Shown: one piece after another, positions 1 to 49,628 of the stretch
How the letters are laid out: the number at the start of each line of letters is the position of its first letter
Numbering within the stretch: position 1 is the first letter of the stretch
Sequence record: PZ721903.1
Length of the DNA stretch: 49,628 nt
From: a phage
Strand: one strand, 5' to 3'
Made by a program: the position numbers and the translations under genes
The notes under the pieces: model-generated
Databases searched by the model: none
Told to the model about the DNA's origin: nothing
The model's input: the letters and a program-made list of their open reading frames with translations, nothing else

Positions 1-24
1 ATGTTAAACAAAGAGGATGGATTT

Positions 25-549: not shown

Positions 550-587
550 CGTTACGGGCGCGCAAGCGCCCATACAGGAGAATTGAT

Positions 588-2156
588 ATGATTCAATGGG
601 AAGAACTCGACGCAACTCAGAAGTTGGCGATCAAAAAAATGAGCGAGGCCAATTTCGAAAAAATGATTCGGATCTGGTTTCAGCTTATGCAGGCTCAGCA
701 GTTCCAGCCTAACTGGCATCACCTTTACCTATGTCACGAAGTGGAGGAAATTATTGCAGGCCGACGCGGTAACACTATCTTTAACGTCACGCCAGGCTCC
801 GGTAAAACTGAGGTGTTCTCAATTCACCTTCCGGTGTACGCAATGCTCAAGTGTAAAAAGGTGAGAAACCTTAACGTGTCGTTTGCCGACAGCTTAGTTA
901 AGCGTAACAGTAAGCGTGTCCGTGAGATTATCAGCAGCAACGAATTTCAAGAGCTATGGCCTTGCAAGTTCGGTACATCGAAAGACGAGGAGATGCAGGT
1001 TCTTAATGAAGACGGAAAGGTTTGGTTTGAGCTAATCTCCGCAGCGGCTGGTGGTCGTATTACTGGTTCGCGTGGTGGGTACATGATGCCAGGATTCTCA
1101 GGTATGGTAATGCTCGACGATATCGACAAGCCTGATGATATGTTCTCAAAGGTTAAGCGTGAGCGTACGCACATGCTATTGAAAAACACCATTCGATCCC
1201 GTCGTATGCATAACGAAACGCCAATTATCGCAATTCAGCAGCGACTACATGCTCAGGATTCAACCTGGTTCATGATGAATGGCGGGATGGGTATTGAGTT
1301 TGACCAAATCTCAATCCCGGCGCTGGTGACGGAAGAATACGGAAAGACACTTCCTGATTGGTTGCAGCCTTACTTTGAGCGTGATGTTTTATCGTCTGAG
1401 TATGTAGAATTGGATGGCGTTAAGCATTACTCTTTTTGGCCCAGCAAGGAAAGCGTTCACGACCTGTTAGCCTTGCGAGAAGCTGATCAGTACACCTTTG
1501 ACTCTCAGTATCAGCAGAAGCCGATCGCGCTTGGTGGCTCCGTGTTTAACTCGGAGTGGTGGACCTATTACGGCAGCAGCCTTGACGCTGACGAGCCAGA
1601 TCCTGGTAAATATGATTACCGTTTTATCACAGCAGATACCGCTCAGAAGACGGGTGAGCTAAACGACTACACGGTCTTTTGTTTATGGGGTAAGAAAAAC
1701 GATAAGGTTTACTTTATCGACGGCATTCGCGGCAAGTGGGAAGCGCCTGATATGGAGAAACAATTTACCGCCTTTGTGAATCAGGCATGGAGGCACAATA
1801 AATCAATGGGCGTGCTTCGCAAAATCTACGTGGAAGATAAAGCGAGCGGAACGGGCTTGATTCAGAACTTAAGGAAAAAGACCACGATCTCAATTACACC
1901 ATTGCAACGTAACAAAGATAAAGTTACCCGAGCGATGGATGCGCAGCCAGTTATTAAGGCCGGGCGTGTAGTTCTTCCAGAAGAGCACCCTATGCTTGCG
2001 GAAATCATCGCAGAGCATAGCGCTTTCACATATGATGACACACATCCGCATGATGACATTGTCGATAACTTCATGGATGCGGCGAACATTGAATTGCTGA
2101 CTATTGACGATCCTATTGAGCGAATGAAGCGACTTGCCGGGATGGTTAAGCGGTAA
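588..2156 (+). CDS. terminase large subunit
   Basis: 522 aa; ATPase N-terminal region and C-terminal nuclease-like region (DTAQKTGELNDYTVFCLWG); RBS caggag before the ATG. Confidence 0.85.
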   Translation: MIQWEELDATQKLAIKKMSEANFEKMIRIWFQLMQAQQFQPNWHHLYLCHEVEEIIAGRRGNTIFNVTPGSGKTEVFSIHLPVYAMLKCKKVRNLNVSFADSLVKRNSKRVREIISSNEFQELWPCKFGTSKDEEMQVLNEDGKVWFELISAAAGGRITGSRGGYMMPGFSGMVMLDDIDKPDDMFSKVKRERTHMLLKNTIRSRRMHNETPIIAIQQRLHAQDSTWFMMNGGMGIEFDQISIPALVTEEYGKTLPDWLQPYFERDVLSSEYVELDGVKHYSFWPSKESVHDLLALREADQYTFDSQYQQKPIALGGSVFNSEWWTYYGSSLDADEPDPGKYDYRFITADTAQKTGELNDYTVFCLWGKKNDKVYFIDGIRGKWEAPDMEKQFTAFVNQAWRHNKSMGVLRKIYVEDKASGTGLIQNLRKKTTISITPLQRNKDKVTRAMDAQPVIKAGRVVLPEEHPMLAEIIAEHSAFTYDDTHPHDDIVDNFMDAANIELLTIDDPIERMKRLAGMVKR

Positions 2157-2174
2157 TAAATGAGATATAATCAA

Positions 2175-2200
2175 GGCTGTCAATTGACGGCCTTTTTTAT
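2175..2200 (+). terminator. hairpin + T-run attenuator between terminase and portal, followed by RBS
   Basis: ggctgtcaattgacggcc then tttttt, then tggaggaaacATG. Confidence 0.5.
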
Positions 2201-2210
2201 TGGAGGAAAC

Positions 2211-3494
2211 ATGAAAATTGTTAAACATGATGGATATAACGATATCTTTAACGGCGGCGCGGACGGTTCACCAAAGCCATTTTTTATGTCAGACGCATCA
2301 TATCACGTAGGATCTTTCTATAACGATAACGCAACAGCGAAGCGAATTGTAGATGTGATCCCGGAAGAAATGGTGACGGCTGGATTTAAAATTTCAGGCG
2401 TTAAGGATGAAAAAGAGTTCAAATCTCTGTGGGATAGTTACAAAATTGATCCTAGCTTGGTTGATGCTCTTTGCTGGGCGCGCTTATACGGTGGGGCGGC
2501 TATTGTAGCAATCATTAATGACAACAGAATGCTAACCAGTCCAGTTAAGCCTGGGGCTAAACTTGAAGGTGTGCGTGTTTACGATAGGTTCGCAATTACA
2601 ATCGAAAAAAGAGTAACCAATGCGCGATCGCCTCGCTATGGTGAGCCTGAGATCTATAAGGTGTCACCTGGTGACAATATTCAACCTTACTTAATCCACC
2701 ACACAAGAATTTTCATTGCTGATGGTGAGAGAGTTACCCCTCAGATGAGGAAGCAGAATCAGGGGTGGGGTGCTTCAGTTTTGAATAAGTCACTGATTGA
2801 TGCAATCTGCGACTACGACTATTGCGAATCACTTGCGACTCAGATCCTTCGGCGTAAGCAACAGGCGGTATGGAAGGTCAAAGGTCTTGCCGAAATGTGC
2901 GATGATGACGATGCTCAGTATGCGGCGCGTCTGCGACTTGCTCAGGTTGATGATAACTCCGGCGTAGGCCGCGCGATCGGTATCGATGCTGAGACGGAAG
3001 AATACGATGTTCTAAACTCTGATATCAGCGGAGTACCTGAGTTCTTATCAAGCAAGATGGATCGTATTGTTTCCCTTTCCGGGATTCATGAGATTATCAT
3101 CAAAAATAAGAACGTAGGCGGCGTATCAGCGAGCCAAAACACGGCGCTTGAGACTTTCTATAAGTTGGTAGATCGTAAGCGTGAGGAAGATTACAGGCCG
3201 CTTCTTGAGTTCTTGCTGCCGTTCATTGTTGACGAGCAAGAGTGGTCGATCGAGTTCGAGCCTTTATCTGTTCCGAGCAAGAAAGAGGAATCAGAGATCA
3301 CGAAGAATAACGTTGAGTCGGTTACGAAAGCTATCACTGAGCAAATCATCGATCTGGAAGAGGCTCGCGATACGTTGCGCTCTATCGCCCCTGAGTTTAA
3401 GCTAAAGGACGGTAATAACATCAACATTCGCGAACCGGAAGAGCCAACCGAACCGGAGCCGGGATTAGGGGAGAAGTTAGAAGATGAAAATTAA
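2211..3494 (+). CDS. portal protein
   Basis: Large ORF directly after terminase; start moved to ATG 2211 behind RBS tggagga, which follows a hairpin and T-run at 2175-2198. Confidence 0.75.
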   Translation: MKIVKHDGYNDIFNGGADGSPKPFFMSDASYHVGSFYNDNATAKRIVDVIPEEMVTAGFKISGVKDEKEFKSLWDSYKIDPSLVDALCWARLYGGAAIVAIINDNRMLTSPVKPGAKLEGVRVYDRFAITIEKRVTNARSPRYGEPEIYKVSPGDNIQPYLIHHTRIFIADGERVTPQMRKQNQGWGASVLNKSLIDAICDYDYCESLATQILRRKQQAVWKVKGLAEMCDDDDAQYAARLRLAQVDDNSGVGRAIGIDAETEEYDVLNSDISGVPEFLSSKMDRIVSLSGIHEIIIKNKNVGGVSASQNTALETFYKLVDRKREEDYRPLLEFLLPFIVDEQEWSIEFEPLSVPSKKEESEITKNNVESVTKAITEQIIDLEEARDTLRSIAPEFKLKDGNNINIREPEEPTEPEPGLGEKLEDEN

Positions 3495-4245
3495 TGGCGT
3501 TGCTACTCAGTGGCGCTATCCTGAAATGAGCGAGCGCGCAATGTCGCGCTCCCTACAGGATGTAGCAGCCAAACTAACTGAAAAAATGCGTGACGAATTA
3601 AAGCCTATGAAATTTGATGCTACCGACGAAGAGATAGATCAGGCAGAAAGGTCATTGCTTGATTACGTTGAATCGCTCATCTCGCCGATTATAGGTTCTC
3701 TATCATCCGTTGCGCTCACGATCTATAAATTCAACTCTAAGCAGTGGCTGCGCATCGCTCGCAATGCTGGAGGTAAGAAGAATCAAGCCGTGATGCTACT
3801 TGCCCTGATTGGTCCTACCGCTGACGAAAGCTGGTACTCAGGACAATATAATCTGTGGCGATCGCAGGTTACTACTTCTATCAGGAAATTTGCCGCCAAC
3901 ATGGTTACTGATTTCACTGATAAACTTCGTGCGGCATCCGGTCAGGGTAAAAGCAAGGATTTTGTTGTTGAACTTGCTAAGGAACGATTTGGTATTTACC
4001 GGAACTGGGCCAAAAATAGAGCGTCGGGAATTGTCGGAACATGGAACAGTAGACTGATGCGGCAGCGTGTAAAAGACGCTGGTGTATCTTACTATTTCTG
4101 GCGCGGGGTGATGGATTTACGCGAACGTGAAAAACATGTAAGATGGGAAGGTAAGCGCATAGCGGTAGATTCCGATCACGTATTCCCGGGTGAAGAATAC
4201 AACTGCCGTTGTTGGGCTGTTCCAGACTTTTCCACAGGAGATTAA
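3484..4245 (+). CDS. head morphogenesis protein (Mu F-like / SPP1 gp7-like)
   Basis: C-terminal YFWRGVMDLREREKH...NCRCW resembles the Mu F minor head protein domain; sits after the portal. Confidence 0.65.
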   Translation: MKINGVATQWRYPEMSERAMSRSLQDVAAKLTEKMRDELKPMKFDATDEEIDQAERSLLDYVESLISPIIGSLSSVALTIYKFNSKQWLRIARNAGGKKNQAVMLLALIGPTADESWYSGQYNLWRSQVTTSIRKFAANMVTDFTDKLRAASGQGKSKDFVVELAKERFGIYRNWAKNRASGIVGTWNSRLMRQRVKDAGVSYYFWRGVMDLREREKHVRWEGKRIAVDSDHVFPGEEYNCRCWAVPDFSTGD

Positions 4246-4247
4246 AA

Positions 4248-5360
4248 ATGAAGGCAAAGCAAAGATTCGATTCGGTAAAAATCAAGGCACACTTTGATGA
4301 TAATGGTTTTTTGGTTGATCGCCCCATCGTGGCGAGAATTGGTGCTCAGGTTTACAAGACTCCACACGGCGATCGCGTTGAGTTCCGTCCGGCGTCCGAA
4401 GTTTTCAAGCAAGATTCATTGCAAAGTTTTGCAGGCAAGCCGATTACAGTAGGTCACGTAACGGTAACTCCCCAAAATGCTAAGGATGTTGTTGTCGGAT
4501 CGTGTGCTGGCGCTGGTATTGCTTCAGGGGTTGGCGTTGAAGTTCCTTTGAGTATTTACAGCGACTACGCGATCAGCAAAGCTAAAGCGAAGGAGGCCGG
4601 GGAATTATCTGTAGGGTATACGTCGGTAGATATTGATAAGCCCGGCTGGGGTTCAAATGAGACTGGAGAATATATCTTCGAAGAGGATATGAAACAGGAC
4701 GAAGCGCCGCCTGAAGGTTGGGTGAAATTCGACGCGGTACAGACTAATATCAAGGTCAACCATATTGCCCTAGTTTTTAAAGGTCGTGCGGGAATTGCTA
4801 AATTAAATCTTGATGCCGAACAGGAGTTCCCGTATGATAATAACGTTCAATTAACTAACGAGGACAAGCAAATGAAAAAAATTAAGATCGACTCAGTTGA
4901 TGTGGAAGTAACCGAAGACGTTGCGAACCATATCGAAAAATTAACCGCTCAGATTGCCACCATTCAGGGGAAAGCTGATGGCTTCGAAGCTGAGCGCGAT
5001 GCGCTGAAGGTTAAGGTTGACTCTCTGCCGGAACTTGTGAAGGCCGAGGTAGAGAAGCAAAAAGCCGATGCCGCCGCACGCGCAGAAGTTACCGCAGTAG
5101 CAGAAACCGCAGGCGTCAAACATGATGGTCTTGATATCAAAGACGTCAAGATTGCCGTAGTTAAAGCCATGCTTGATAAAGATGTTAGTGAAAAATCTGA
5201 TGCATATATCGACGCTATGTTTGATGTTGCTAAAGATTCTGATATCATGGCTATTCAGCGTAAAGCAGTAAAAGGCGACTCTATCGAAGGCGGTAAGCCG
5301 GAAGAGAAAAACGACGCCGCGCCTGTTACGCCAAATTCACGTTTAAGCAAAGTAATGTAA
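4248..5360 (+). CDS. head scaffolding / prohead protease-like protein
   Basis: Start at ATG 4248 (RBS ggag); charged, Ala/Lys/Glu-rich coiled-coil-like C-terminal half typical of scaffolds; position between portal and capsid genes. Confidence 0.45.
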   Translation: MKAKQRFDSVKIKAHFDDNGFLVDRPIVARIGAQVYKTPHGDRVEFRPASEVFKQDSLQSFAGKPITVGHVTVTPQNAKDVVVGSCAGAGIASGVGVEVPLSIYSDYAISKAKAKEAGELSVGYTSVDIDKPGWGSNETGEYIFEEDMKQDEAPPEGWVKFDAVQTNIKVNHIALVFKGRAGIAKLNLDAEQEFPYDNNVQLTNEDKQMKKIKIDSVDVEVTEDVANHIEKLTAQIATIQGKADGFEAERDALKVKVDSLPELVKAEVEKQKADAAARAEVTAVAETAGVKHDGLDIKDVKIAVVKAMLDKDVSEKSDAYIDAMFDVAKDSDIMAIQRKAVKGDSIEGGKPEEKNDAAPVTPNSRLSKVM

Positions 5361-5371
5361 GGGGAAATATC

Positions 5372-5848
5372 ATGGCACAAATTAATGCATCTTATCAGCG
5401 AGATATGGCGATTGCGCTTCCGGGTATGGTTGCGGATACTTCAAAGTACAATATTGACGGCGCTTGTGTCGTTAATGAAGGTGATGTTCTTGTTGGCGCT
5501 GCCGTACAAGTTGTTCAAGCTCAGGCGGTTGATGGTCATAAGTTGGTTAAGGCTCTTACTACCGGAACCACTCCTTACGGCGTGGCAATCCGATCTCACT
5601 GGCAGACTGTTAACGCTCAAAATCAGATGATTTACGAAGATGGCGGCGCTATCAACGTGATGACTTCAGGCCGAGTATGGATGCTTTCCAAATCCACCGA
5701 AGCACCAACTTTCGGCTCTGCCGTTAAACTTGATGTTGATGGTCAGGAAAAATCTGATGGCACGATCGAAACAACCTGGACCTACGCTGGCGGTTGGACT
5801 AAATACAAAGATATTCAGCTTGTTGAGGTTCAGTTGCATCAACTGTAA
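5372..5848 (+). CDS. capsid decoration-like protein, paralog A
   Basis: 158 aa; clearly paralogous to the next ORF (DTSKYNIDGACV...TPYG[VI]A[IF]RS...HGRVW); followed by a terminator. Confidence 0.45.
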   Translation: MAQINASYQRDMAIALPGMVADTSKYNIDGACVVNEGDVLVGAAVQVVQAQAVDGHKLVKALTTGTTPYGVAIRSHWQTVNAQNQMIYEDGGAINVMTSGRVWMLSKSTEAPTFGSAVKLDVDGQEKSDGTIETTWTYAGGWTKYKDIQLVEVQLHQL

Positions 5849-5863
5849 TTAGCGTTTAATATG

Positions 5864-5897
5864 GGGACTATCTTTTTTTTGGATAGTCCTTTTTTTA
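5864..5897 (+). terminator. intrinsic terminator/attenuator followed directly by RBS
   Basis: ggactatc / gatagtcc stem with T-rich loop, T7 run, then ATGGAGAAATCattATG. Confidence 0.6.
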
Positions 5898-5910
5898 TGG
5901 AGAAATCATT

Positions 5911-6429
5911 ATGGCTTACGAAAATTTGTTCTTGCGCCCCGCGTGTCCGGGAAATATTTCTGATACTTCAACCTACAATATTGATGGAGCTTGTGTGGCT
6001 CAAGGTGACATTGGGTTCGGCTCAGCGGTTCAGGTTGTAGGCATCGTTGACGGTGTAAAAGTTGTGGCGGCGCTTCCTGATGGTGGAACTCCTTACGGTA
6101 TCGCTTTCCGTTCCCAATATGAACACCTGAGCGGTAAAATCCTTGACGGTGAAGTGTGCAACGTCGTTTCTCACGGTCGCGTATGGACTCTTACTTCTCT
6201 TGGTGAGGCTCCCAGCTTGTTCTCAAAGTTACAGTTTGGGTCTGGTGGAGTTGTTACTGGGGGATCTGGTTCCGCAGGTTGGACATTTGCGGGTGGCTTT
6301 GTTAAGCATGAAGATGGCTACATCATTGAGGTTCAGGTGAAACAAAATGCTTTCATCGCTCCACCGCCACCGCCCCCTGTCGTTCTTGTTGAATCTGCTA
6401 CAATCGCCACTGACAAGGAAAGCCCTTAA
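5911..6429 (+). CDS. capsid decoration-like protein, paralog B, with poly-Pro linker
   Basis: Paralog of 5372..5848 extended by PPPPPP linker and the first strand of a Big_2-like domain; ends at in-frame TAA 6427-6429. Confidence 0.45.
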   Translation: MAYENLFLRPACPGNISDTSTYNIDGACVAQGDIGFGSAVQVVGIVDGVKVVAALPDGGTPYGIAFRSQYEHLSGKILDGEVCNVVSHGRVWTLTSLGEAPSLFSKLQFGSGGVVTGGSGSAGWTFAGGFVKHEDGYIIEVQVKQNAFIAPPPPPPVVLVESATIATDKESP

Positions 6430-6678
6430 CCAAACAATGTTACGATCCAGTGTGTAGCTAATGCTCTTCCGGATAATGCAACCGATAAGACTGGTAAATG
6501 GTCAATCGACGCTACCAATATCGCCACTGTCGATCCGGACTCAGGTCTTGTAACTCCTGTTGGTGGAGAGGTAGTCGGTGATTTCAATATTACCTGGACG
6601 GCTAACGATGCCAGCAAGACGACGGCAACTATTGCTTATCGCGTAGAAGCAGTGCCAACGCCAGAGGTTGATGCATAA
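6430..6678 (+). other. in-frame extension encoding a Big_2-like Ig domain beyond TAA (possible readthrough product or pseudogenised C-terminus)
   Basis: Same frame as 5911..6429; 82 sense codons (PNNVTIQCVANALPDNATDKTGKWSIDATNIATVDPDSGLVTPVGG...TATIAYRVEAV) with no in-frame ATG/GTG/TTG until 8 codons from the end. Confidence 0.5.
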
Positions 6679-6698
6679 CATAAAAACACTTTGACGCT

Positions 6699-6715
6699 TT
6701 AACAAAAAGTGCTAT
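6699..6715. promoter_or_regulatory. palindromic box copy (late region)
   Basis: ttaacaaaaagtgctat; lies between a TTGACG hexamer and attatt, upstream of hairpin 6722. Confidence 0.6.
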
Positions 6716-6721
6716 TATTGA

Positions 6722-6750
6722 AGCCGTGAACATAATCACGGCTTTTTTAT
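6722..6750 (+). terminator. hairpin + T-run upstream of the capsid gene
   Basis: agccgtga-acataa-tcacggct followed by tttttatt; sits just downstream of box copy 6699 and a TTGACG hexamer. Confidence 0.5.
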
Positions 6751-6769
6751 TAACTACGGAGAAGTAATA

Positions 6770-7729
6770 ATGACTACTAAAAAATTTGATGAAGCAGATA
6801 AAAGCAATGTTGAAATGTATCTGATCCAGGCTGGCGTAAAACAGGATGCAGCCGCAACGATGGGTATCTGGACCGCTCAGGAACTACACCGCATCAAGAG
6901 TCAGTCCTATGAAGAAGACTACCCGGTCGGCTCCGCTCTACGAGTATTCCCGGTTACAACCGAACTCTCTCCGACCGACAAGACGTTTGAGTACATGACC
7001 TTTGATAAGGTTGGTACTGCTCAGATTATCGCTGACTATACCGATGACCTGCCTCTGGTTGATGCACTTGGTACTTCTGAATTTGGTAAGGTGTTCCGTT
7101 TGGGTAACGCGTATCTGATCTCAATCGACGAAATCAAAGCAGGTCAGGCAACTGGTCGCCCACTGTCAACCCGTAAGGCGAGCGCGTGCCAGTTGGCGCA
7201 TGATCAGCTTGTTAACCGCCTGGTGTTCAAAGGTTCCGCACCGCACAAGATTGTGTCCGTGTTTAACCATCCGAACATCACTAAAATTACCTCCGGTAAG
7301 TGGATTGATGCATCTACTATGAAGCCGGAAACTGCGGAAGCTGAGCTAACTCAAGCGATCGAAACCATCGAGACGATTACTCGGGGTCAGCACCGCGCAA
7401 CCAACATCCTGATCCCGCCTTCCATGCGTAAGGTTTTGGCGATTCGTATGCCTGAGACAACCATGTCTTATCTGGACTATTTTAAGTCTCAGAACTCCGG
7501 TATCGAAATCGACTCTATCGCAGAGCTTGAGGATATTGACGGCGCAGGCACCAAAGGCGTACTGGTGTACGAAAAGAATCCGATGAACATGTCCATCGAG
7601 ATCCCGGAAGCATTTAATATGCTGCCAGCACAACCGAAAGACTTGCACTTTAAAGTGCCTTGCACTTCTAAGTGTACTGGTCTTACAATTTATCGCCCGA
7701 TGACTATTGTCTTAATCACTGGCGTGTAA
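6770..7729 (+). CDS. major capsid protein (putative)
   Basis: 319 aa ORF with strong RBS ggag in the expected position after scaffold/decoration genes; high-expression context (own promoter/attenuator upstream). Identity from position and size. Confidence 0.6.
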   Translation: MTTKKFDEADKSNVEMYLIQAGVKQDAAATMGIWTAQELHRIKSQSYEEDYPVGSALRVFPVTTELSPTDKTFEYMTFDKVGTAQIIADYTDDLPLVDALGTSEFGKVFRLGNAYLISIDEIKAGQATGRPLSTRKASACQLAHDQLVNRLVFKGSAPHKIVSVFNHPNITKITSGKWIDASTMKPETAEAELTQAIETIETITRGQHRATNILIPPSMRKVLAIRMPETTMSYLDYFKSQNSGIEIDSIAELEDIDGAGTKGVLVYEKNPMNMSIEIPEAFNMLPAQPKDLHFKVPCTSKCTGLTIYRPMTIVLITGV

Positions 7730-7736
7730 TATTATA

Positions 7737-7765
7737 GGGGCTAACTTAGTTAGTCCCTTTTTTAT
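7737..7765 (+). terminator. intrinsic terminator/attenuator followed directly by RBS
   Basis: ggggctaac-tta-gttagtccc stem, ttttttatt, then GGAGAAATCaaaATG. Confidence 0.6.
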
Positions 7766-7778
7766 TGGAGAAATCAAA

Positions 7779-8066
7779 ATGGCTAAAGAAAAAACTGTTG
7801 TTATCGTAAACGTTGGTGTAGCTCTTCAGATGTTCCGTCTTGAAGATGGTTCCTTTGCTAAAGTTCTTCCAGATGAAGAGGTCACGCTTCCGGCGTCCGT
7901 TCTTGATTTACCTGGCCTGCGTTGCTTAATTGCTCGCGAAGAAATCGAAGTTAAAGACGACAGTGCAACCAACCGCAAAATCCGCGCTGAAATGGCAAAG
8001 ATCACTAAGCCAGATCCGTGGGATAGCAAAAGCGTTAAAGAGCTTGAGGACGGCGGCGAATATTAA
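7779..8066 (+). CDS. hypothetical head-module protein
   Basis: 95 aa ORF after a terminator+RBS module (ttttttattGGAGaaatcaaaATG). Confidence 0.5.
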   Translation: MAKEKTVVIVNVGVALQMFRLEDGSFAKVLPDEEVTLPASVLDLPGLRCLIAREEIEVKDDSATNRKIRAEMAKITKPDPWDSKSVKELEDGGEY

Positions 8067-8072
8067 TCATCA

Positions 8073-8097
8073 AGGCGCTCATGTAGCGCCTTTTTTT
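8073..8097 (+). terminator. intrinsic terminator/attenuator followed directly by RBS
   Basis: aggcgct-catgt-agcgcc stem, T7 run, then ATGGGGGTAATTATG. Confidence 0.6.
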
Positions 8098-8109
8098 ATG
8101 GGGGTAATT

Positions 8110-8520
8110 ATGAATCAAGAAACTTTAATTGCAGCTGTTGAGCAAATGCGAAAGCTGGTTCCGGCACTTCGTAAGGTTCCAGACGAAACGCTTTATGCGT
8201 GGGTAGAAATGGCTGAGCTTTTTGTATGCCAGAAGACCTTTAAAGACGCATACGTCAAAGCGATCGCTCTTTATGCATTACACCTTGCTTTCCTTGATGG
8301 GGCGCTAAAAGGTGAAGATGAGGATCTGGAATCGTACTCACGCCGCGTTACGTCATTCTCACTGAGCGGTGAATTTAGCCAGACTTTCGGAGAGGTTACG
8401 AAGAACCAGTCAGGGAACATGATGCTTTCTACGCCGTGGGGTAAGATGTTCGAACAGCTTAAAGCGAGACGCCGTGGTAGATTCGCATTAATGACAGGAC
8501 TCCGTGGAGGATGCCACTAA
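8110..8520 (+). CDS. head-tail connector / adaptor (putative)
   Basis: Start at ATG 8110 behind ggggg RBS after terminator 8073-8097; position between capsid and tail genes. Confidence 0.45.
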   Translation: MNQETLIAAVEQMRKLVPALRKVPDETLYAWVEMAELFVCQKTFKDAYVKAIALYALHLAFLDGALKGEDEDLESYSRRVTSFSLSGEFSQTFGEVTKNQSGNMMLSTPWGKMFEQLKARRRGRFALMTGLRGGCH

Positions 8521-8891
8521 TGAACTACTCACAGATTGAAAGAATGGCTCGCAAAGGCGTGGCTTTCTTCACCGATCCGTCAAGACCTATGAACCTGATA
8601 AAACAAGGTGAATACGGATATGATGAAAACGGATTCGAGATCCCACCGATGGAACAGGTTATTCCAATATCCGGCGCGACGAGAAGACCGAACGCGCGTG
8701 AGATTGACGGGGAAACTATCCGCGCCTCAGATATTTTGGGGATCTTCAATAATGATCATGAAATAAACGAAGGTGACTATATAGAGATTGATGGCATTCG
8801 TCATGTTGTCGTTGATGCTCGCCCGGTTCAGGCGTCACTGGAACCAGTTGCCTATCGTCCAGTGTTGCGGAGGGTATCAGTCGGTGGCTAA
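8520..8891 (+). CDS. head closure / neck protein (putative)
   Basis: Start at ATG 8520 (RBS ggagg at 8506-8510); gene order. Confidence 0.4.
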   Translation: MNYSQIERMARKGVAFFTDPSRPMNLIKQGEYGYDENGFEIPPMEQVIPISGATRRPNAREIDGETIRASDILGIFNNDHEINEGDYIEIDGIRHVVVDARPVQASLEPVAYRPVLRRVSVGG

Positions 8892-9327
8892 TTATCAGAT
8901 TCGTAGATTTCAAGGCGAGATTGATGCGTGGATTAAGGCAGCTGAAAGCACGTTAGAACATGCCATTGAGATATTCGTAAGGGATGTTCACGACGCTCTT
9001 GTTAGCCGCTCCCCTGTTGATACAGGTCGATTCAAGGGTAACTGGCAGATAACTTTTAACGAAATCCCTAACCACGCATTAAACCGATACGATAAAACTG
9101 GCAGTGTCGTAAGAGGTGAGGAGCAGGCCAAAACTTATGGCATGTTCAGCCGTGGCGGCGCGATAACATCAGTTCACTTTTCAAACATGTTGATTTATGC
9201 AAACGCTCTTGAGTACGGTCATTCACAGCAAGCACCGAGCGGAGTTGTCGGTCTTGTGGCATTAAGGCTGAGATCATATATGGCTGACGCAATCAAGCAG
9301 GCAAGGAGACAGCAAAATGCACTATGA
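8884..9327 (+). CDS. HK97 gp10-like tail-component protein
   Basis: Motif SPVDTGRFKGNW typical of the HK97 gp10 family; start set at GTG 8884 (RBS ggaggg) instead of the track start at 8788, which would overlap the upstream gene by about 100 nt. Confidence 0.45.
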   Translation: MANYQIRRFQGEIDAWIKAAESTLEHAIEIFVRDVHDALVSRSPVDTGRFKGNWQITFNEIPNHALNRYDKTGSVVRGEEQAKTYGMFSRGGAITSVHFSNMLIYANALEYGHSQQAPSGVVGLVALRLRSYMADAIKQARRQQNAL

Positions 9328-10396: not shown

Positions 10397-10432
10397 AGGG
10401 GGCTTGCGCCCCCTTGTTCATTTCTGTAAAAT
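10397..10432 (+). terminator. hairpin (gggggc/gccccc) followed by TGTAAAAT -10-like box
   Basis: GC hairpin after the major tail gene, weak T-run, then ctgtaaaat; box copy 10461 and RBS follow. Confidence 0.45.
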
Positions 10433-10460: not shown

Positions 10461-10477
10461 TTAACAAAAAGTGCTAT
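10461..10477. promoter_or_regulatory. palindromic box copy directly upstream of the chaperone RBS
   Basis: ttaacaaaaagtgctat followed by caaCCAATCAGGAGaaacatcATG. Confidence 0.6.
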
Positions 10478-10816: not shown

Positions 10817-11133
10817 AAAGGGCGGTTTATCTGTTATATCAGAAACCGCCGACAGAAGAGCAATTACGATCGGTTGGCCTCAGTCTTTCTGACTATGAAG
10901 ACGAGGAACCGGAAACGATAATCGGCGATACTGAAATGGTGAAGGCGTGGAATGTTTTTACGTCAATGCTCACTCAGTGGAGAAGTTCAGGCGCTGGAGC
11001 TTATGGTCTTGACTATAATGTTTTGCCTATGTTGTTCAAAATCTATAAAATAGAAGATGAAGAACTGGCATTGCAGGACGTTAGAATCATGGAAGCGAAA
11101 GCGCTTGAAATGGTTGCTAAGCAAAACAACTAA
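10499..11133 (+). CDS. tail assembly chaperone G-T fusion via programmed -1 frameshift
   Basis: The -1 frame from the slippery site at 10807-10813 is open for 107 codons to TAA 11131-11133 ([17 protein letters not shown]...MVKAWNVF...AKQNN). Confidence 0.6.
10807..10813 (+). promoter_or_regulatory. -1 ribosomal frameshift slippery site A AAA AAC
   Basis: X XXY YYZ heptamer in the zero frame, 1 codon before the G stop; conserved G/GT arrangement of siphoviruses. Confidence 0.6.
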
Positions 11134-11156
11134 GCCGCCGTTTGGCGGTTTTTTCG
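11134..11156 (+). terminator. hairpin + T-run after the G-T ORF
   Basis: ccgccgtttggcgg followed by tttttt, immediately before the tape-measure RBS. Confidence 0.55.
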
Positions 11157-11171
11157 TATATAGGGGGTTAT

Positions 11172-14045
11172 ATGGTTGATAAGGTAGCAGGTCTGTCGCT
11201 TGACGTTGATGTGTCAACAGTGCAGCGCGCCGTCAAGTCACTGAAAGAGTTTTCAAAGGCCAACGACCAGGCCGCTGATTCTATGGGTTCTTTAATCAAT
11301 GAGTCAGAGGTTGCAAAACAGAAGGCCAAAGAACACGCTGAACAACTAAGGCGCCAGAGAAAAGAGTATGAGGCCGTGGAGAAGGCAATCGATCCTACAG
11401 TATCAAAAATGGAAAGGTTGAAGATTGCATCTCAGCAGCTTGATAAACTCTGGCAGCAGGGAGTCGTTCCAGATGAGACGTTTTTCCGTTTGGGTGAAAT
11501 GCTGGATCTGCAAAACGCAAAACTTGCTCGCAGCCGGGCTATGCTTACGGAAGAAGGTCAGGCGGCATTGCAGGAAGCGAAAGCAAAAGAGCAGGCGGCA
11601 GCACGAAGCAAGGCGTTCATGGATGCCCTGAATGGTCAAGTTAACGCGATCGGCAAGACTCATGCTGAATTGATGGAACTGAAAGCGGCTGAGCTTGGTT
11701 TATCGAAAGAAGCAGCACCACTAATCGCAAAACTTAAAGATCAAGGCCGGGCTATGAATGCAGCAGGTATTAGCGCCGGGGAATACAGGCAGGCAATGCG
11801 AATGCTTCCTGCACAGATTACCGACGTCGTTACATCTCTTGCATCCGGCATGCCAGTTTGGATGGTTGCCATCCAGCAAGGCGGTCAAATCAAGGACTCG
11901 TTCGGCGGGATCAGTAATACGTTTAAAGTGTTGCTGAGTTATATTAATCCAGTCACAGCAGGGGTTGGCGTTCTCGTTGGCTCGTTAGGTCTTCTGGCGA
12001 AAGCTGGTTATGACTCTTACAAGTCAATAACTGATATTCAGAATGCGCTTATTGAGACTGGCGGTTATGCAGGTGTTACGGCTGAAGAGCTTGATTCAGT
12101 GTCTAAAAAGATCGCACAGACAAGCAACTCAACCATTGGGAGTATTCGCGATATTGTAACGGAGTTGGCGAGTTCTGGTAAGTACACCCGCGAGCAGATC
12201 CAGAACATCACTAAGGCTACCGCAGAGTGGTCAGCGTCAACAGGAAAATCAGCAAGCCAAATTATTTCTGAGTTCGACAAAATCGCAAGCGATCCGGTAA
12301 AAGGCCTGAAGAAGTTAAACGAGCAATATAATTTCCTTGAAAAAGGGCAACTTACCTATATCGATACATTAAGCCGGACGAAAGGAGAAACTGAGGCAGT
12401 ATCAGAGGCTACCAAACTATTCGCAGACGTAATGGAAAAGCGAATGAAGTCGATCGCGGATAACGCTACTCCTCTGGAAAAGATGTGGAGCGATATTAAA
12501 CAATGGGCTTCGGACGCGTGGGGATGGGTTGGTGATCATACACTCGGGGCGCTAAACCTGATTGTCGACGTTGTTCAGGGTACAGTGATTCAGGTTAAAA
12601 TGATTCTTGCGAAGGGTGATGAGTACATCTCAAACTTTATCGCCTCAGCCATAAAGGCAACTCAGTCACTACCTGGAATGAGTGATTTCGGCGCTGATGT
12701 GCTGAAGGAGCAGGAGAACATCGTAAAAAGTTCTCGCGACAACTACGACCAGTTGGCTTCAGAGCTTGATGCTATTAACGCTCGCGTAGAAAAAGGCGAG
12801 ATGGGATACGTTGAAGCGATGAAGCAGCGTCGAACTCTTGAAAAGCAGTACAGTGAGGAAACTAGGGAGGCAATAAGGAAAGAAGCAGAAGAGATCGAGA
12901 AGCGAAACCGAGAAAGAAATAAGCAGTCGAAAATTGTACGCTCACCGACAGAGCAATTCGACAAGGAGTTAATTTCACTCAAGGCTCAACTTAAGGTATT
13001 GCAGGAGCATAAGGAGATCGGTCAAAAACTTTCCGCGCAGAGAAAGGCGCTGTTTACTACCGAGGCTACGATTGCTGTTCTTCGTGAAGCCAGCTCTAAG
13101 CGTCAGTTGTCTGCGGAAGAAAAAGCGTTGCTGGCAAGTCAGGAGAGAGTTATTGAGCTTGCGAAACAGAAGGCCGAGATTGGCGATCAGATTGTTAAGC
13201 AACAACAGTTGAATGATCTTACCGATAAATCTCTGAAGTTTGTCAATGAGATGACGGCAGCTACAGAACAGCTAAACGCGTCTCGAGGGATGAGCACCCG
13301 AGAAATGGAAAGGCAAGCTGAGTTGGCTAAGATCACTACTGATTATATTAATGCAGGTGGCAGCGAAGGAGATGAAAAACTCCAGAACATGATCAAGGCA
13401 CAAAATGATTACTATGCTGCGGAAGATGCCAAGCGTTCTGACTGGTTAGCAGGTGCTGAAAGTGCATTTGCAGATTACGGCGATTCTGCAATGGATATGT
13501 ACGGCAATGTGTATGATATCGCGTCAAGTTCACTTAACGGAATGAGTGACATGATGACCCAATTCCTGACTACAGGTAAGGCAAATTTTGAGGACTTTGC
13601 GAAAAACATCATTAGCATGATTATTAAGATGATTGCTCAAATGGTAATCTTCAATACGATCTCAGGCATGATGGGCGGTAAGACGTGGAGCTTTGCTGGA
13701 GGGGTGTCGCCTGGTGCTTCTGCGGTATCACAGGCAACTCCTACGCCTGCCGTCTCTGGTTTTAGGTCTTTATCTTCAGGCGTCGCTGTTACCTCGCTTG
13801 CTGCCGCTGCGGGTAGTGTTGCAACATCTGGATTTAACGCATCTAAATCCGCACCGAAGGCAGTGAACCAATCAGCAGGCGGGACGGTCGTTGATGTTAG
13901 GGGTATGGAGGTTAAAGTTGACAACGGTTCAGATCCGAGAGGAATTTCTCAGGGCGTAGAAATGATGTTCAAAAAAATGATTCGAGAGTCTTGTTCACAG
14001 GGCGGAGAGGTTTACAATTACATTCAGGAAAAAACAGGAGGCTAA
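11172..14045 (+). CDS. tail tape measure protein
   Basis: 957 aa, long alpha-helical/coiled-coil region, Gly/Ser-rich C-terminus; start at ATG 11172 behind RBS ggggg. Confidence 0.85.
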
Positions 14046-14401: not shown

Positions 14402-14416
14402 CACTTCATGACAAAA

Positions 14417-14452
14417 GCCCGCCTTGCGCGGGTTTTTTTGTAGCTGTAGAAT
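14417..14452 (+). terminator. terminator gcccgccttgcgcggg+T7 followed by TGTAGAAT box (copy 1 of duplicated module)
   Basis: Hairpin and T-run are identical to 16597-16619; followed by ctgtagaat. Confidence 0.65.
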
Positions 14453-16590: not shown

Positions 16591-16596
16591 AATTAA

Positions 16597-16630
16597 CCCG
16601 CCTTGCGCGGGTTTTTTTTCGCCTGTATAA
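16597..16630 (+). terminator. terminator cccgccttgcgcggg+T8 followed by TGTATAAT box (copy 2)
   Basis: Same hairpin as 14417; followed by cctgtataat upstream of the J-like gene. Confidence 0.65.
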
Positions 16631-16667
16631 TGAGTCCACCGATAAATAGCACAAAAAGGTAAACATC

Positions 16668-19600: not shown

Positions 19601-20087
19601 TAATGAGGCAGCACTTTCTCAAAAACTTGATTCGTGGAGCAATGCAGATTCGACTGGTGCAATGTACGGCGTCAAGCTCGGTCTGAAGTATAACGGCCAA
19701 GAATACAGTGCAGGCATGGCTATGTCTCTGATTGGTTCCGGAGCTGCGGTTAAGGCGCAGATTTTGTTTGAGGCATCACGATTTGCCATCATGAATGGAA
19801 TGAATGGTCAGACTCAGTACCCATTCGTTGTTGAGAATGGCCAGGTTATTTTAAGTAGCGCGATTATCAAGAACGGATTCATCACGAATGCGATGATTGG
19901 TAATGTTATTCAATCGAATAACTATGTCGTTAACAAGGCTGGCTGGATACTTGACAAGGGTGGAACATTAGAAAACTACGGAAGTGACGCTGAGGGTGCA
20001 ATGAAGCAAACTAATACCACAATATCTGTTAGGGATGCGAGTGGTCGCCTGAGGGTTCAGATTGGCAGGTTGACTGGTTCATGGTAA
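16668..20087 (+). CDS. central tail fibre / host specificity protein (lambda J-like)
   Basis: 1139 aa; largest tail gene after the I-like gene; FN3-like repeats in the middle, coiled region near the C-terminus. Confidence 0.85.
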   Translation: MIQKVISGSKGGSPKPHNPVEMEDNLISINKIKILLAVSDGEIDETFSLKQLMFNSVPVQNEDGSFNFEGVKAEFRPGTQTQEYIKGMEDSSSEVTVNREVTTDNPYTISVTNKTLSAIRIKMFMPRGVRIESNGDKNGVRVEYEVQQAVDGGSFETVLTDVIEGKTMSGYDRSRRVNLPSFNNQVIFRVVRKTPDSNDSNVVDAIQVKSYAEVIDAKFRYPLTGLLFVEFDSKMFPNQLPTISIRKRWKIVSVPSNYDPESRTYNGNWDGTFKKAWTNNPAWVLYDLMINQRYGLDQKELGIAVDKWALYEAAQYCDQMVPDGKGGTEPRYLCDVIIQSQTDAYKVIRDICSIFRGMSFWNGESISVIIDRPREPAYIFTNDNVVNGDFSYTFASEKSMYTTCNVMFDDEQNMYQQDVEPVFDREATLRFGNNVTSITAIGCTRRSEANRRGRWILKTNLRSTTVNFATGLEGMIPTIGDVVAIADNFWSSNLTMNLSGRLLEVSGSQIFLPLRVDARAGDFIIVNKPDGKPVKRTISSVSADGKTIEVNIGFGFPVKPNTVFAIDRTDIALQQYVVTKIDKGDDDEEFTYKITAVEYDPNKYDEIDYGVNIDDRPTSIVEPDQIPRPENVQVSSESRIVQGMSVETMIVSWDKVPYAVFYDVQWRKDNGNWQNVPQTANKEVYVEGIYAGNYQVRVRSVAGSGTTSGWSNVVAATLTGKQGEPGGPINLTATDDVVFGIRTKWGFSDGSGDTAYTELQQSPDGTVDNASLLSLIPYPQHEYYHSPMPGGNIVWYRVRTVDRIGNVSQWTDFVRGMASTNVDDIIGEISVDIENSPGYEWLVDNATDNAAQNAANAEAAIENALANDKDAIYMKKENGKRKAEYTKSLKLIADETQARVTAIEQLKASFGDQISASNSELREVIATETGALSREIDQLRAEIGDDIQASLTDIREAIANETEARTQADLSLSARLGNNEAALSQKLDSWSNADSTGAMYGVKLGLKYNGQEYSAGMAMSLIGSGAAVKAQILFEASRFAIMNGMNGQTQYPFVVENGQVILSSAIIKNGFITNAMIGNVIQSNNYVVNKAGWILDKGGTLENYGSDAEGAMKQTNTTISVRDASGRLRVQIGRLTGSW

Positions 20088-20092
20088 TATCA

Positions 20093-20119
20093 AGGGCATC
20101 GAGAGATGCTCTTTTCTTT
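20093..20119 (+). terminator. terminator/attenuator followed by RBS
   Basis: gggcatc-gaga-gatgctc stem, ttttctttt, then GGAGGatttattATG. Confidence 0.55.
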
Positions 20120-20132
20120 TGGAGGATTTATT

Positions 20133-20438
20133 ATGGCGTACGGTATATCAACTTGGGACGCAAATGGCGTTTATAATAACTATGGAATTAAGCCTGTTAC
20201 GGTTGTTGGTTGGAACTTTTTGTCAGCAGGACAGAATTCAGCATCGTTCAGCTATCAAGTTCCTCCTGGTATGCATGTGAACTACGTTATAAGCCTTGAC
20301 AATGGCGCCATTAGTGGGCCTGGCAGGAAAATTATTGCTAGCGGTAATACGATAACAGTAACGCCAACAAACTCACCCGGGCCAAACGTGTACCCATCAT
20401 CAAACTGTTACTTAATAGCATATCTGGAGAATGATTAA
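20133..20438 (+). CDS. hypothetical tail-associated protein
   Basis: Start ATG 20133 after terminator+RBS module (ttttcttttGGAGGatttattATG). Confidence 0.45.
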   Translation: MAYGISTWDANGVYNNYGIKPVTVVGWNFLSAGQNSASFSYQVPPGMHVNYVISLDNGAISGPGRKIIASGNTITVTPTNSPGPNVYPSSNCYLIAYLEND

Positions 20439-24152: not shown

Positions 24153-24180
24153 AAAAATCCCCGCAATGCGGGGATTTTAT
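24153..24180. terminator. bidirectional terminator between ssb (+) and tail fibre (-)
   Basis: aaaaatccccgcaatgcggggatttt: stem flanked by an A-run and a T-run. Confidence 0.65.
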
Positions 24181-25685: not shown

Positions 25686-25704
25686 AATATAAACTCCTTA
25701 AGTA

Positions 25705-25723: not shown

Positions 25724-25727
25724 CACA

Positions 25728-25785: not shown

Positions 25786-26721
25786 TTATAGTAGATCACT
25801 TGCTGAGAATAACTTAGCTTGCATTCCTGAGCGGTATCCTCCCTGATTCGGGATGATTATTTTTAATTGTCTGTCGTCTGCCATGTATAAAGTTTCTTTA
25901 TCAGATGGTTCGCACGCCACCCTTACCTCCCGATCTCCCTTGTATCTGTACGCAACCATTTCTATATTTTCAGGAGTGAAGCAGGCCCATACCTCTTGCT
26001 TTGTGTGAAATGCAATATGCTGAGCATCAATCCAATTAAGGCATAAGTAGATCGCTTTTTCAGTTTTACCAGTCACGGCAACCGAGCAACTTGTGTATTT
26101 CTTTGCATAAAATGACTCCCTACCCTCCTCATCAATAATCAAAATATTGCAAAACTCTTCATCAAGACCGTCCTCGTGTACAAGTTGACATGGTATGGTG
26201 TGAAATACACTCTCGCCGCCATCCTCTCGACGTTTTACGCCAACGTCGAATGATTCAGTAGGTAGCGACTCAAACATGCTTAGAGGTGTGTTTATGCGCT
26301 TCTCTGTGCGCTCCATAACTTTCATCACTGCCTCGTGTTCTGCCATCATAACATTGACGCCAGCTACCGGAGTTCTTCGCGCTTTTTTGTTGGCCTTGAC
26401 AATGTATTCCTGCGGAACCTTGCCGAGAAATCTTCCCAGGATATTTATACATTCGCTGTACGGCATACCAGTTAATTTCATCAACCAACCGACTCCAGAG
26501 TCGTTACCGCATGAGTTGCAGATCGCACCGCCGTCGCCCGGAGTGTTAAGGTTATCAGTCCAGCGAAAGCGGTCCTTACCCCCGCAGTTAGGGCAAGGTT
26601 GGTGTTTCTTATTAAAAACATCATTCGGCAATCCGCAGATTGATTGGAAAGCCTCGCGCCATAACCCCTTCATGTACGGCAAAACGTCCTCTTTCTGAAA
26701 CATCATAAATTCTTCGTTCAC
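25786..26721 (-). CDS. DNA primase (zinc-binding, putative)
   Basis: N-terminal CPNCGGKDRFRW...CNSCGN zinc-finger motif typical of phage/plasmid primases; 311 aa. Confidence 0.65.
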   Translation of the reverse strand: MNEEFMMFQKEDVLPYMKGLWREAFQSICGLPNDVFNKKHQPCPNCGGKDRFRWTDNLNTPGDGGAICNSCGNDSGVGWLMKLTGMPYSECINILGRFLGKVPQEYIVKANKKARRTPVAGVNVMMAEHEAVMKVMERTEKRINTPLSMFESLPTESFDVGVKRREDGGESVFHTIPCQLVHEDGLDEEFCNILIIDEEGRESFYAKKYTSCSVAVTGKTEKAIYLCLNWIDAQHIAFHTKQEVWACFTPENIEMVAYRYKGDREVRVACEPSDKETLYMADDRQLKIIIPNQGGYRSGMQAKLFSASDLL

Positions 26722-26731
26722 TTCCAGATCT

Positions 26732-26774
26732 CCAAAATAAAAAACGCGTAGAAGGATGTTAACCCGCTACGCGT
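26732..26774 (-). terminator. possible terminator/attenuator between the HTH gene and primase (- strand)
   Basis: acgcgtag...ctacgcgt 8-bp stem with long loop, T-run on the - strand. Confidence 0.4.
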
Positions 26775-26778
26775 CGTT

Positions 26779-45771: not shown

Positions 45772-45824
45772 TTTTAACGGGGAATCGGATCTGAACGGTT
45801 CCCCTTTCTTTTGGAGAAAACACT

Positions 45825-45935
45825 ATGCCAGACTTTTCTAACTGGAATAACGAGCCGCCATCATTTCAGGAGTTGCTATTCTGCCTCCTGGTCCTGACAT
45901 TATCTCTTAAGGGTGTTTTATGGCTACTATCATGA
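45825..45935 (+). CDS. small hydrophobic peptide (36 aa)
   Basis: Preceded by a terminator+RBS module (cccctttcttttGGAGAAAACACTATG) identical in type to those of the late operon. Confidence 0.3.
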   Translation: MPDFSNWNNEPPSFQELLFCLLVLTLSLKGVLWLLS

Positions 45936-49568: not shown

Positions 49569-49577
49569 TAAACACTA

Positions 49578-49620
49578 ACCCGCTTCGGCGGGTTTTTTTA
49601 TGCCTGCAATATGGTAAAAT
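49578..49620 (+). terminator. terminator followed by TGgTAAAAT extended -10-like box upstream of terminase
   Basis: acccgcttcggcgggt + T7, then atggtaaaat (49611-49620); junction box copy and terS RBS follow across the window end. Confidence 0.65.
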
Positions 49621-49628
49621 AGCACTAA
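49619..49628. promoter_or_regulatory. palindromic box copy spanning the window junction (continues at 1..10)
   Basis: atagcactaa at 49619-49628 joins atgttaaaca at 1-10 to give atagcactaaatgttaaaca, matching atagcacgaattgttaaaac. Confidence 0.6.

Follow-up and report, generated by a model that had tools for sequence, protein, structure and literature searches.

Compact terminator–ribosome-binding-site junctions in the late region of a T1-like phage and their predicted separation into promoter-free and promoter-bearing kinds

The 49,628-nt phage sequence PZ721903.1 (the window, meaning the whole stretch of DNA analysed) includes nine gene junctions at which a hairpin, a T-run, a Shine-Dalgarno (SD) sequence and the start codon of the next gene follow one another directly. 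These fused modules occur in excess over chance and are conserved in related phages. They are best explained as compact Rho-independent terminators of two kinds, with and without an abutting promoter, that cut the late region into short transcription units, an explanation that we consider likely as a whole. The window is assigned to Tunavirus (Drexlerviridae) because its bases 1–9000 share 100%, 95.9% and 94.4% nucleotide identity with Escherichia phage FCWL1, JMPW1 and phage T1, respectively, and mapping of the T1 proteins onto it gave a collinear gene map.

The coordinates of the modules are given in Table 1. Six of them had been listed in the original prediction, and the hairpin, T-run, ribosome-binding site (RBS) and ATG were found at all six. 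The list was incomplete, as the modules with hairpins at 6720-6745 before the major capsid gene, at 11134-11149 before the tape-measure gene (11132-11151 in Table 1) and at 26773-26745 on the minus strand before the primase gene (26775-26743 in Table 1) had been missed, and the hairpin of the sixth listed site starts at 45779 rather than at 45795. The nine hairpins have folding free energies (dG) of -11.5 to -16.7 kcal/mol and z scores of -3.0 to -5.8 relative to 200 dinucleotide shuffles, and begin 5–41 nt past the preceding stop codon. An uninterrupted U-tract of 5–7 T lying no more than 2 nt from the stem is present in the 2173, 5864, 6720, 7736, 8072, tape-measure and primase modules, and the T-run is broken (TTCTTTT, TTTCTTTT) at 20092 and 45779. 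The tail of the minus-strand primase module is TTTTTTATTTTGGAG. Judged by sequence, the elements lack none of the properties of intrinsic terminators and are classed as such here.

The distance from the end of the hairpin to the start codon is bimodal, being 16–24 nt at the nine fused modules and 31–84 nt at the other terminators. The fused gap is at about the physical minimum, as a T-tract, an SD and a spacer together need at least ~19–21 nt. At the six sites listed earlier the SD lies 4–8 nt before an ATG that is also the start used in the T1 annotation. In the predicted folds of the read-through RNA, the SD is unpaired at four of these six sites and weakly paired at 20092 and 45779.

Table 1. 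Fused modules, abutting promoter-like elements, non-fused terminators and ATAGCAC repeats of the window. T1 coordinates refer to the T1 record AY216660.1; SD, Shine-Dalgarno sequence; dG in kcal/mol.
Feature	Span	Strand	Hairpin	T-run	SD	Start codon	dG	z	Terminator in T1	Remarks
TerL to portal module	2173..2213	+	2173-2194	2193-2198	GGAGG 2202-2206	ATG 2211	-13.3	-5.8
Portal junction -10	2166-2171	+								TATAAT, perfect hexamer, ends 1 nt before hairpin; no -35 TTG
Decoration to Ig-like decoration module	5834..5913	+	5864-5890	5890-5896	GGAG 5899-5902	ATG 5911	-14.1	-5.6	14237-14269
Promoter-like element before Ig-like gene	5834-5862	+								TTGCAT 5834-5839, 17 nt, TAATAT 5857-5862; 7/12 consensus match
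Ig-like to major capsid module	6691..6772	+	6720-6745	6743-6748	GGAG 6758-6761	ATG 6770	-14.6	-5.4	15095-15121	T1 promoter 15062-15089; both annotated in T1 record
Capsid-gene promoter (predicted)	6691-6718	+								TTGACG 6691-6696, 16 nt, extended -10 TGcTATTAT 6710-6718; 10/12 match plus extended -10, best consensus match
Major capsid to ORF46 (DUF7444) module	7707..7781	+	7736-7758	7758-7763	GGAG 7767-7770	ATG 7779	-13.4	-4.3	16107-16137
Promoter-like element before ORF46	7707-7735	+								TTGTCT 7707-7712, 17 nt, TATTAT 7730-7735
ORF46 to head-tail connector 1 module	8072..8112	+	8072-8092	8091-8097	GGGGG 8100-8104	ATG 8110	-11.5	-3.7
Tape-measure chaperone to tape-measure module	11132..11174	+	11132-11151	11149-11154	GGGGG 11163-11167	ATG 11172	-11.9	-3.1
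Tail fibre J to ORF32 module	20062..20135	+	20092-20113	20112-20120 (interrupted)	GGAGG 20121-20125	ATG 20133	-11.9	-3.3	28568-28594
Promoter-like element before ORF32	20062-20090	+								TTGGCA 20062-20067, 17 nt, TGgTAATAT (-10 at 20085-20090); scored in the window alone
Early-region ORF68 to ORF67 module	45779..45827	+	45779-45804	45805-45812 (interrupted)	GGAG 45813-45816	ATG 45825	-16.7	-3.4	4001-4034
Regulator to primase module	26719..26775	-	26775-26743	present	TTTTGGAG (GGAG 26733-26730)	GTG 26721	-16.7	-5.1	35930-35969	The 26773 module
Terminator after major tail gene	10397..10432	+	10397-10414							TAAAAT 10427-10432; 84 nt to next start codon
Terminator after tipM	14414..14452	+	14414-14436						annotated	TAGAAT 14447-14452; 44 nt to tipL
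Terminator after tipI, upstream of J	16595..16652	+	16595-16613	T6					annotated	TATAAT 16626-16631; ATAGCAC repeat 16646-16652
Terminator upstream of TerS	49577..49625	+	49577-49594	present						Extended -10 TGGTAAAAT 49612-49620; ATAGCAC repeat 49619-49625
ATAGCAC examples	27248, 29757, 41427, 42167, 43187, 44474, 46122, 47789, 49619	+
ATAGCAC examples	34550, 36712, 37212, 37731, 38847, 39311, 40493	-
ATAGCAC examples	6709-6715, 10471-10477									Reversed

Terminators are far more frequent in the window than expected by chance. A permissive finder used initially (71 and 68 hits, including long sloppy hairpins) was replaced by stricter versions. With stringent criteria (hairpins no longer than 30 nt, dG of -10 or lower, at least four T in the next five bases), 25 terminators were found, as compared with 2.1±1.4 (maximum 6) in 30 dinucleotide shuffles; of the 25, 21 lie between genes and share the orientation of the genes on either side. 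Using a second scanner on the first 20 kb, 31 sites were detected against 18.6±4.1.

A strong RBS of one form had been thought to be shared by the modules. An SD is indeed present at every site, but at 8100 it is GGGGG, and the form described is the one used throughout the genome, where the SD is generally GGAG or GAGG, 7–8 nt before the start; hence, an RBS special to the modules was rejected. Their only peculiarity in this respect is the T of the T-run in place of A before the SD. The bare motif TTTTTATTGGAGAAA is marginally enriched (6 matches versus 2.8±1.7 with up to three mismatches). A repeated or mobile sequence was likewise rejected as the source of the module, as the hairpins have no sequence in common and the T-run plus SD motif is barely above chance.

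Conservation was assessed in the head-to-tail region of 15 Drexlerviridae (at least seven genera) and T1, whose genes were mapped before one terminator finder was applied to all; counts are given over 17 phages. The proteins of the relatives are 36–78% identical to those of T1. A hairpin was found at the portal junction in 12 of the 17 phages (gap to the start codon 16–22 nt), at the capsid junction in 13 (17–27 nt in eight of them), at the connector 1 junction in 16 (17–26 nt in 14 of them) and at the tape-measure junction in 16 (18–25 nt). At the ORF46 junction it is fused in ten phages (20–25 nt) and non-fused in seven more. An enlarged sample of 63 IMG/VR loci around capsid-gene homologues gave 38 distinct variants of the connector 1 junction, all with a hairpin, T-run and RBS and a gap of 17–25 nt. 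In the window and at most junctions of the relatives, the T-tract directly adjoins the 3' side of the stem.

The stems themselves vary, with 3–11 distinct stems per junction that all still pair. This was determined by comparison in the register of the base of the stem, which reveals differing stems at one junction and is no proof of base-by-base homology. Alignment by MAFFT followed by RNAalifold was out of register at the ORF46 and portal junctions, where stem and loop lengths differ, and the consensus fold obtained there is meaningless. The tape-measure junction aligns cleanly and gave a consensus fold of -13 kcal/mol, with compensatory change in three of the seven pairs. Since the junctions keep their hairpins while the stems turn over, the comparison argues that the position and structure of the hairpin are under selection and that the stem sequence is not.

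Terminators have been annotated at many of these junctions. The re-annotated T1 record includes rho-independent terminators at the homologues of 45779, 5864, 6720, 7736, 8072, the tape-measure module, 20092 and 26773. In six of these eight (5864, 7736, 8072, 20092, 45779 and 26773) the annotated RBS starts on the very next base, and at the 6720 and tape-measure homologues it starts 6–8 nt after the terminator. The terminator between TerL and portal (2173) is unannotated in the T1 record and annotated in phage Stevie, a member of another subfamily, where terminators are also recorded after decoration, between capsid and the next gene, before connector, after major tail, before tape-measure and after tipM. 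Terminator-RBS junctions are a documented hallmark of T1-like phages, and the T1 late region is described in the literature as terminator-flanked modules containing RpoD promoters (Roberts et al. 2004, PMID 14972552, cited in PMC11447400 and PMC4319613).

A promoter-like element abuts the hairpin at several of the junctions. A promoter scanner produced three hits in which the -10 hexamer ends 1–2 nt before the hairpin (6691-6718, 7707-7735 and 20062-20090). When the pattern TTGnnn-16..18-TAnnnT was required to end within 4 nt of a hairpin, it was found at four of the 16 plus-strand hairpins of the window (5864, 6720, 7736 and 20092), as compared with 0.41% of random positions (binomial P ~5e-7 by our own arithmetic). 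No promoter-like element was found at the 45779 junction. Across the 17 phages the pattern precedes ten of 17 hairpins at the ORF46 junction, eight of 13 at the capsid junction and five of eight at the Ig-like junction, against a background of 0.6%, and it was found before neither connector 1 (0/16) nor the tape-measure gene (0/16). The perfect TATAAT at the portal junction has no -35 at 16–18 nt; an adjacent TAnnnT hexamer, again a -10 only, occurs at 11 of 12 portal junctions in the relatives, and a promoter there is doubtful.

Among the IMG/VR loci, 42 distinct sequences have a hairpin at the junction following the capsid gene, and 36 of these are fused. All 36 fused variants carry TTGnnn-17-TAnnnT ending 0–2 nt before the hairpin, and the spacer is always 17 nt, even though the variants include 11 different -35 hexamers, seven -10 hexamers and 18 hairpins, with 6–16 nt between the stop codon and the hairpin. 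The TTG falls in differing codon phases of the capsid C-terminus between lineages; therefore, protein coding fails to explain its conservation. The connector 1 junction 300 nt away serves as an internal negative control, with none of its 38 distinct variants carrying the pattern. In seven of the phages compared, no promoter precedes the post-capsid hairpin, and five of these (Rtp, JK06, 12397III, NJS2 and K2alpha62) have a good -10 hexamer (TATAAT or TACAAT) 16–34 nt past the hairpin, followed by a long leader, which suggests that stop-and-restart is retained there in a changed geometry.

The promoter geometry of the Ig-like junction is kept in BrunoManser and atuna with differing hexamers, and the promoter of the capsid gene is conserved family-wide, standing apart from the terminator in Webervirus and ESCO41. 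With their -35 and -10 hexamers, spacing of 16–18 bp and conservation, the abutting elements qualify in sequence terms as sigma-70 promoters.

The modules of the late region can thus be separated into two kinds. At both, the U-tract of the terminator would run straight into the SD of the next gene. In the first kind, represented by the connector 1 (8072) and tape-measure junctions, the gap of 17–22 nt leaves no room for a promoter, and the downstream genes would be expressed by read-through only. Because these genes are essential and there is no promoter, read-through should be obligatory and termination partial at these two junctions, a deduction from their anatomy. Partial termination there would lower the dose of the low-copy connectors and tape measure after high-copy proteins. 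Partial termination had been proposed for every listed site; this holds as an obligatory property at 8072, while 5864, 7736 and 20092 have abutting promoter-like elements.

In the second kind (the Ig-like, capsid, ORF46 and ORF32 junctions, possibly also portal), a promoter of the host sigma-70 type would end 0–2 nt before the hairpin. Transcription usually starts 6–9 nt after the -10 hexamer. Such a start corresponds to nucleotides 5–9 of the hairpin and leaves a residual stem of 0 to -7.7 kcal/mol, as compared with -11.8 to -14.5 kcal/mol for the full stem. With a start ~7 nt past the -10, in the 5' arm, local transcripts would lack a complete stem and escape, and transcripts arriving from upstream would stop. 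Junctions of this kind would reset the level of transcription instead of only lowering it. On this basis they may be 'self-bypassing' terminators, ~75-bp elements that stop upstream polymerase, launch stem-less transcripts and deliver them onto an SD, a proposal that we put forward tentatively, at a little under even chances. Polymerase parked at the abutting promoter could in addition act as a roadblock that tunes the termination of upstream traffic.

The gene order of the window is TerS, TerL, portal, morphogenesis protein, protease, decoration, Ig-like (immunoglobulin-like) decoration, major capsid, ORF46 (ORF, open reading frame), connectors and tail, followed by the replication and early genes, and the window is probably an entire genome that was opened near TerS. 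The decoration protein belongs to a cement-protein family, and the annotation of phage Rtp names T1 gp47-49 'abundant capsid-related proteins'. Terminators follow the decoration, Ig-like decoration, major capsid and major tail genes, and this placement fits a step-down after abundant structural genes. The promoter closest to consensus precedes the capsid gene, as would fit the most abundant protein, and the abutting promoters would supply high expression of capsid and decoration.

With terminators designated by the position of their hairpins, the predicted late units would then be arranged as follows. The terminator at 49577 with a promoter would precede TerS and TerL, and that at 2173 with its abutting -10 would precede portal through decoration. 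Promoter-terminator pairs at 5864, 6720 and 7736 would head the Ig-like, capsid and ORF46 units, respectively. The promoter-free terminator at 8072 would lead into the connectors through major tail, and that at 10397 with a -10-like element into the chaperones. The promoter-free terminator at 11134 would be followed by tape-measure and tipM, and that at 14414 with a -10-like element by tipL through tipI. The last units would be J, after the terminator at 16595 with a -10-like element, and ORF32 and ORF31, after the promoter and terminator at 20092, with the terminator at 21126 as the end of the block.

The non-fused late terminators (10397, 14414, 16595 and 49577) have a -10-like hexamer 10–21 nt past the hairpin, which is conserved in relatives. 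Among the 15 phages listed, 13 have such an element (TAAAAT, TAGAAT, TAATAT or CATAAT) 10–13 nt past the hairpin that follows the major tail gene, and the extended -10 upstream of TerS is kept in NJS2, K6PH25C3 and 12397III. Separately from these, the hairpin at 9337-9352 (GGCGGCGCGAGCCGCT TTTCTATC; -10.8 kcal/mol) is strong and has a T-rich tail. Its position is 9 nt past the ORF43 stop codon and within the overlapping gene of the tail terminator, which starts at 9317. This hairpin is kept in T1 and XJA18 and may be an intragenic terminator or a pause site.

The junctions had originally been read as steps of one late operon, expression of which would be lowered at each hairpin. In its full form, this explanation has a single upstream promoter, a partial terminator in every hairpin and hexamers that are not promoters. 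The late region does contain serial real terminators, the two promoter-free junctions do need read-through, and the TLS authors recognised only three intergenic sigma-70 promoters under strict criteria; the same principle has been shown in LUZ7 and T7 (PMC9163698). However, decoration, Ig-like decoration and major capsid, the most abundant proteins of the virion, are encoded beyond the first one to three terminators, so that a stepped-down operon would give the wrong order of dosage. Nor does it explain, without a function, the promoter pattern in 36/36 variants at one junction versus 0/38 at its neighbour, or why the promoter of the capsid gene is near consensus and conserved family-wide even away from the hairpin. 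A single late operon is therefore unlikely. The accompanying term 'attenuation-type' has to be dropped, as the junctions lack a leader, a riboswitch and any alternative antiterminator fold: when each gap was folded in full, the minimum-energy structure contained only the terminator hairpin, and an Rfam search revealed no family reaching the gathering score.

A further possibility is that the hairpins act mainly post-transcriptionally, as 3' barriers that stabilise the upstream messages for abundant proteins or as 5' stem-loops of locally initiated messages, with termination secondary and the U-run by the SD serving as a translational enhancer that binds ribosomal protein S1. U-rich tracts lying 5' of an SD act as enhancers of translation, and stem-loops at a 5' end give protection from RNase E. 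The unpaired SD in four of the six read-through folds agrees with such a role, as does the capsid junction in four IMG/VR loci (L035, L044, L054 and L064), where the hairpin after the promoter is kept though the T-tract has only 2–3 T or is replaced by A. The stem core GCCGT/ACGGC of this hairpin changes by compensatory substitutions in the same relatives. As the hairpin persists where the T-tract is poor or absent, that of the capsid junction may have a role beyond termination, e.g. in 5' stability or regulation of the capsid transcript. On the other hand, the T-tract has mostly kept its place next to the 3' side of the stem, which a stability element does not need, and a start 7–9 nt past the -10 leaves a weak 5' stem of 0 to -5 kcal/mol. 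A post-transcriptional role, which is compatible with terminators of two kinds, is improbable as the explanation of the modules in general.

Equally improbable are efficient terminators suppressed late by a phage factor of the lambda Q or N type or by a put-like RNA, for temporal gating and not for dosage: several of the hairpins are strong (dG -13 to -15 kcal/mol with 5–7 uninterrupted T), five to ten of them in series would nearly abolish distal transcription unaided, and time-dependent read-through is known in other phages (PMC9163698), but a Pfam scan of the early proteins showed only DUF3850/ASCH and Cro-like helix-turn-helix domains and no recognised antiterminator, no known RNA family was found, and abutting or downstream promoters supply the distal genes more simply.

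Several points weigh against the division of the late region by two kinds of terminators as preferred here. The anatomy of the modules, their excess over chance and their conservation are observed, but where transcription starts, whether the promoters are active and whether the terminators work and leak are all deduced from sequence, and no transcriptome, 5'- or 3'-end, read-through or promoter-assay data for the T1 group were found in the literature. Of the four abutting promoters, two match the consensus weakly, and at the portal junction there is a -10 only. The relatives share ancestry, so the counts of junction variants are not independent and overstate the support. The hairpin at the capsid promoter has little or no T-tract in L035, L054 and L064, and if transcription began just 1–2 nt upstream of the assumed position, much of the stem would be recovered.

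Some further features of the window were observed. The heptamer ATAGCAC occurs 24 times versus 5.2±2.2 expected (examples in Table 1) and is the core of the known 21–22 nt repeat of T1, TLS and Stevie (aaATAGCACnnnTTGnTAAAA). In the early regions it is followed after ~5–10 nt by an inverted repeat with arms of 6–7 bp that differ between copies. In at least eight copies the loop of the inverted repeat carries an extended -10 (TGATATAGT, TGATAGAAT, TGGTATAGT, TGCTATAGT), and past this -10 there is a conserved leader CATCGAAACGAG and then an RBS. The unit looks like a repeated early-promoter module with its -10 embedded in a hairpin. The predicted promoter of the capsid gene has the reversed copy at 6709-6715 within its spacer. 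At the end of the tape-measure chaperone gene (10805-10850), an A-rich slippery run (GCAAAAAACTAA) is followed after 3–4 nt by a hairpin with a 10-bp stem (GGCGGTTTAT...CAGAAACCGCC, 10821-10850), an arrangement in keeping with the G/GT-type frameshift annotated in T1.

The Ig-like decoration gene (5911-6678), which encodes 255 amino acids in T1 and FCWL1, has an in-frame TAA at 6427-6429 in the window where FCWL1 has CAA. The stop codon cuts the protein at residue 172 and probably removes its C-terminal Ig-like part.

The gene map was taken from T1, since the minus-strand genes of the FCWL1 record are flipped. Comparison of this record (PP558327.1) with window positions 24180-40208 showed each minus-strand gene to be reverse-complemented in place with the spacers unflipped. 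Consequently, all coding sequences are annotated on the plus strand in FCWL1; the window is in agreement with T1. The flipping looks like a deposition artefact. The FCWL1 annotation further starts two genes at upstream in-frame ATGs (8098 and 2160), which places the RBS or the whole hairpin inside coding sequence. The T1 starts at 8110 and 2211 have proper SDs and match the conserved anatomy of the junctions.

As worded, the original prediction rediscovers a known hallmark with a familiar mechanism and adds little. The comparison gives a testable map of how very different protein doses could be obtained from a tightly packed block with host RNA polymerase only, in which the two junction types, with obligatory read-through or with termination and restart, are separable by sequence alone. 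If confirmed, the promoter-bearing type would extend promoter-terminator coupling to phages in reverse orientation and would offer compact insulating parts for synthetic operons.

Among the closest known systems is T1 itself, whose terminators and 'transcriptons' (Roberts et al. 2004, cited in PMC11447400 and PMC4319613) correspond to those of the window element by element and junction by junction. In the parts of the T1 literature available, the -10 lying 0–2 nt before the hairpin, the invariant 17-nt spacer, the start in the 5' arm and the split into two types were not found stated. The reversed promoter-terminator geometry with its fixed spacer and the division into promoter-bearing and promoter-free junctions thus seem not to have been spelled out before.

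The trp and his attenuators and riboswitches share with the modules a terminator hairpin and U-tract upstream of coding sequence, but the junctions of the window have no leader region, leader peptide, ligand domain or antiterminator fold. The late operon of lambda is likewise a long co-oriented morphogenesis block with terminators that polymerase must pass. It differs in that no Q- or N-like protein and no qut- or nut-like element was recognised here by Pfam (early proteins) and Rfam, and the terminators of T1-type phages are far more numerous, every one belonging to a gene junction.

Leaky terminators inside operons balance gene dosage in the phages LUZ7, with stepwise read-through, and T7, where termination is inefficient (PMC9163698). 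There too, serial intrinsic terminators lie in a co-oriented structural block after highly expressed genes, and downstream genes need read-through. Read-through was measured in those phages and is deduced here at two junctions. Junctions of the T1 type, in which T-tract and SD touch, are much more compact, and about half of them have an abutting promoter.

Promoter-coupled terminators have been described in bacteria, phages being untreated, as elements with a transcription start ~10 bp past the point of termination and a stem-loop whose DNA also serves as the -35 (Fletcher et al., bioRxiv 10.64898/2026.08.19.745784). The likeness is that the terminator and promoter of adjacent tandem units occupy one short intergenic stretch. 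Their order, with the -10 just past the T-tract and the start no more than 35 bp beyond the termination site, is seen in sequence terms within the window only at the non-fused 10397, 14414, 16595 and 49577, and it also matches the post-capsid junctions of Rtp, JK06, 12397III, NJS2 and K2alpha62. None of the nine fused modules has it, as their T-tract is followed directly by the SD and start codon. In the fused promoter-bearing modules the arrangement is reversed: the promoter lies upstream, the predicted start falls in the 5' arm of the hairpin, and termination would occur ~25–30 nt downstream of the start.

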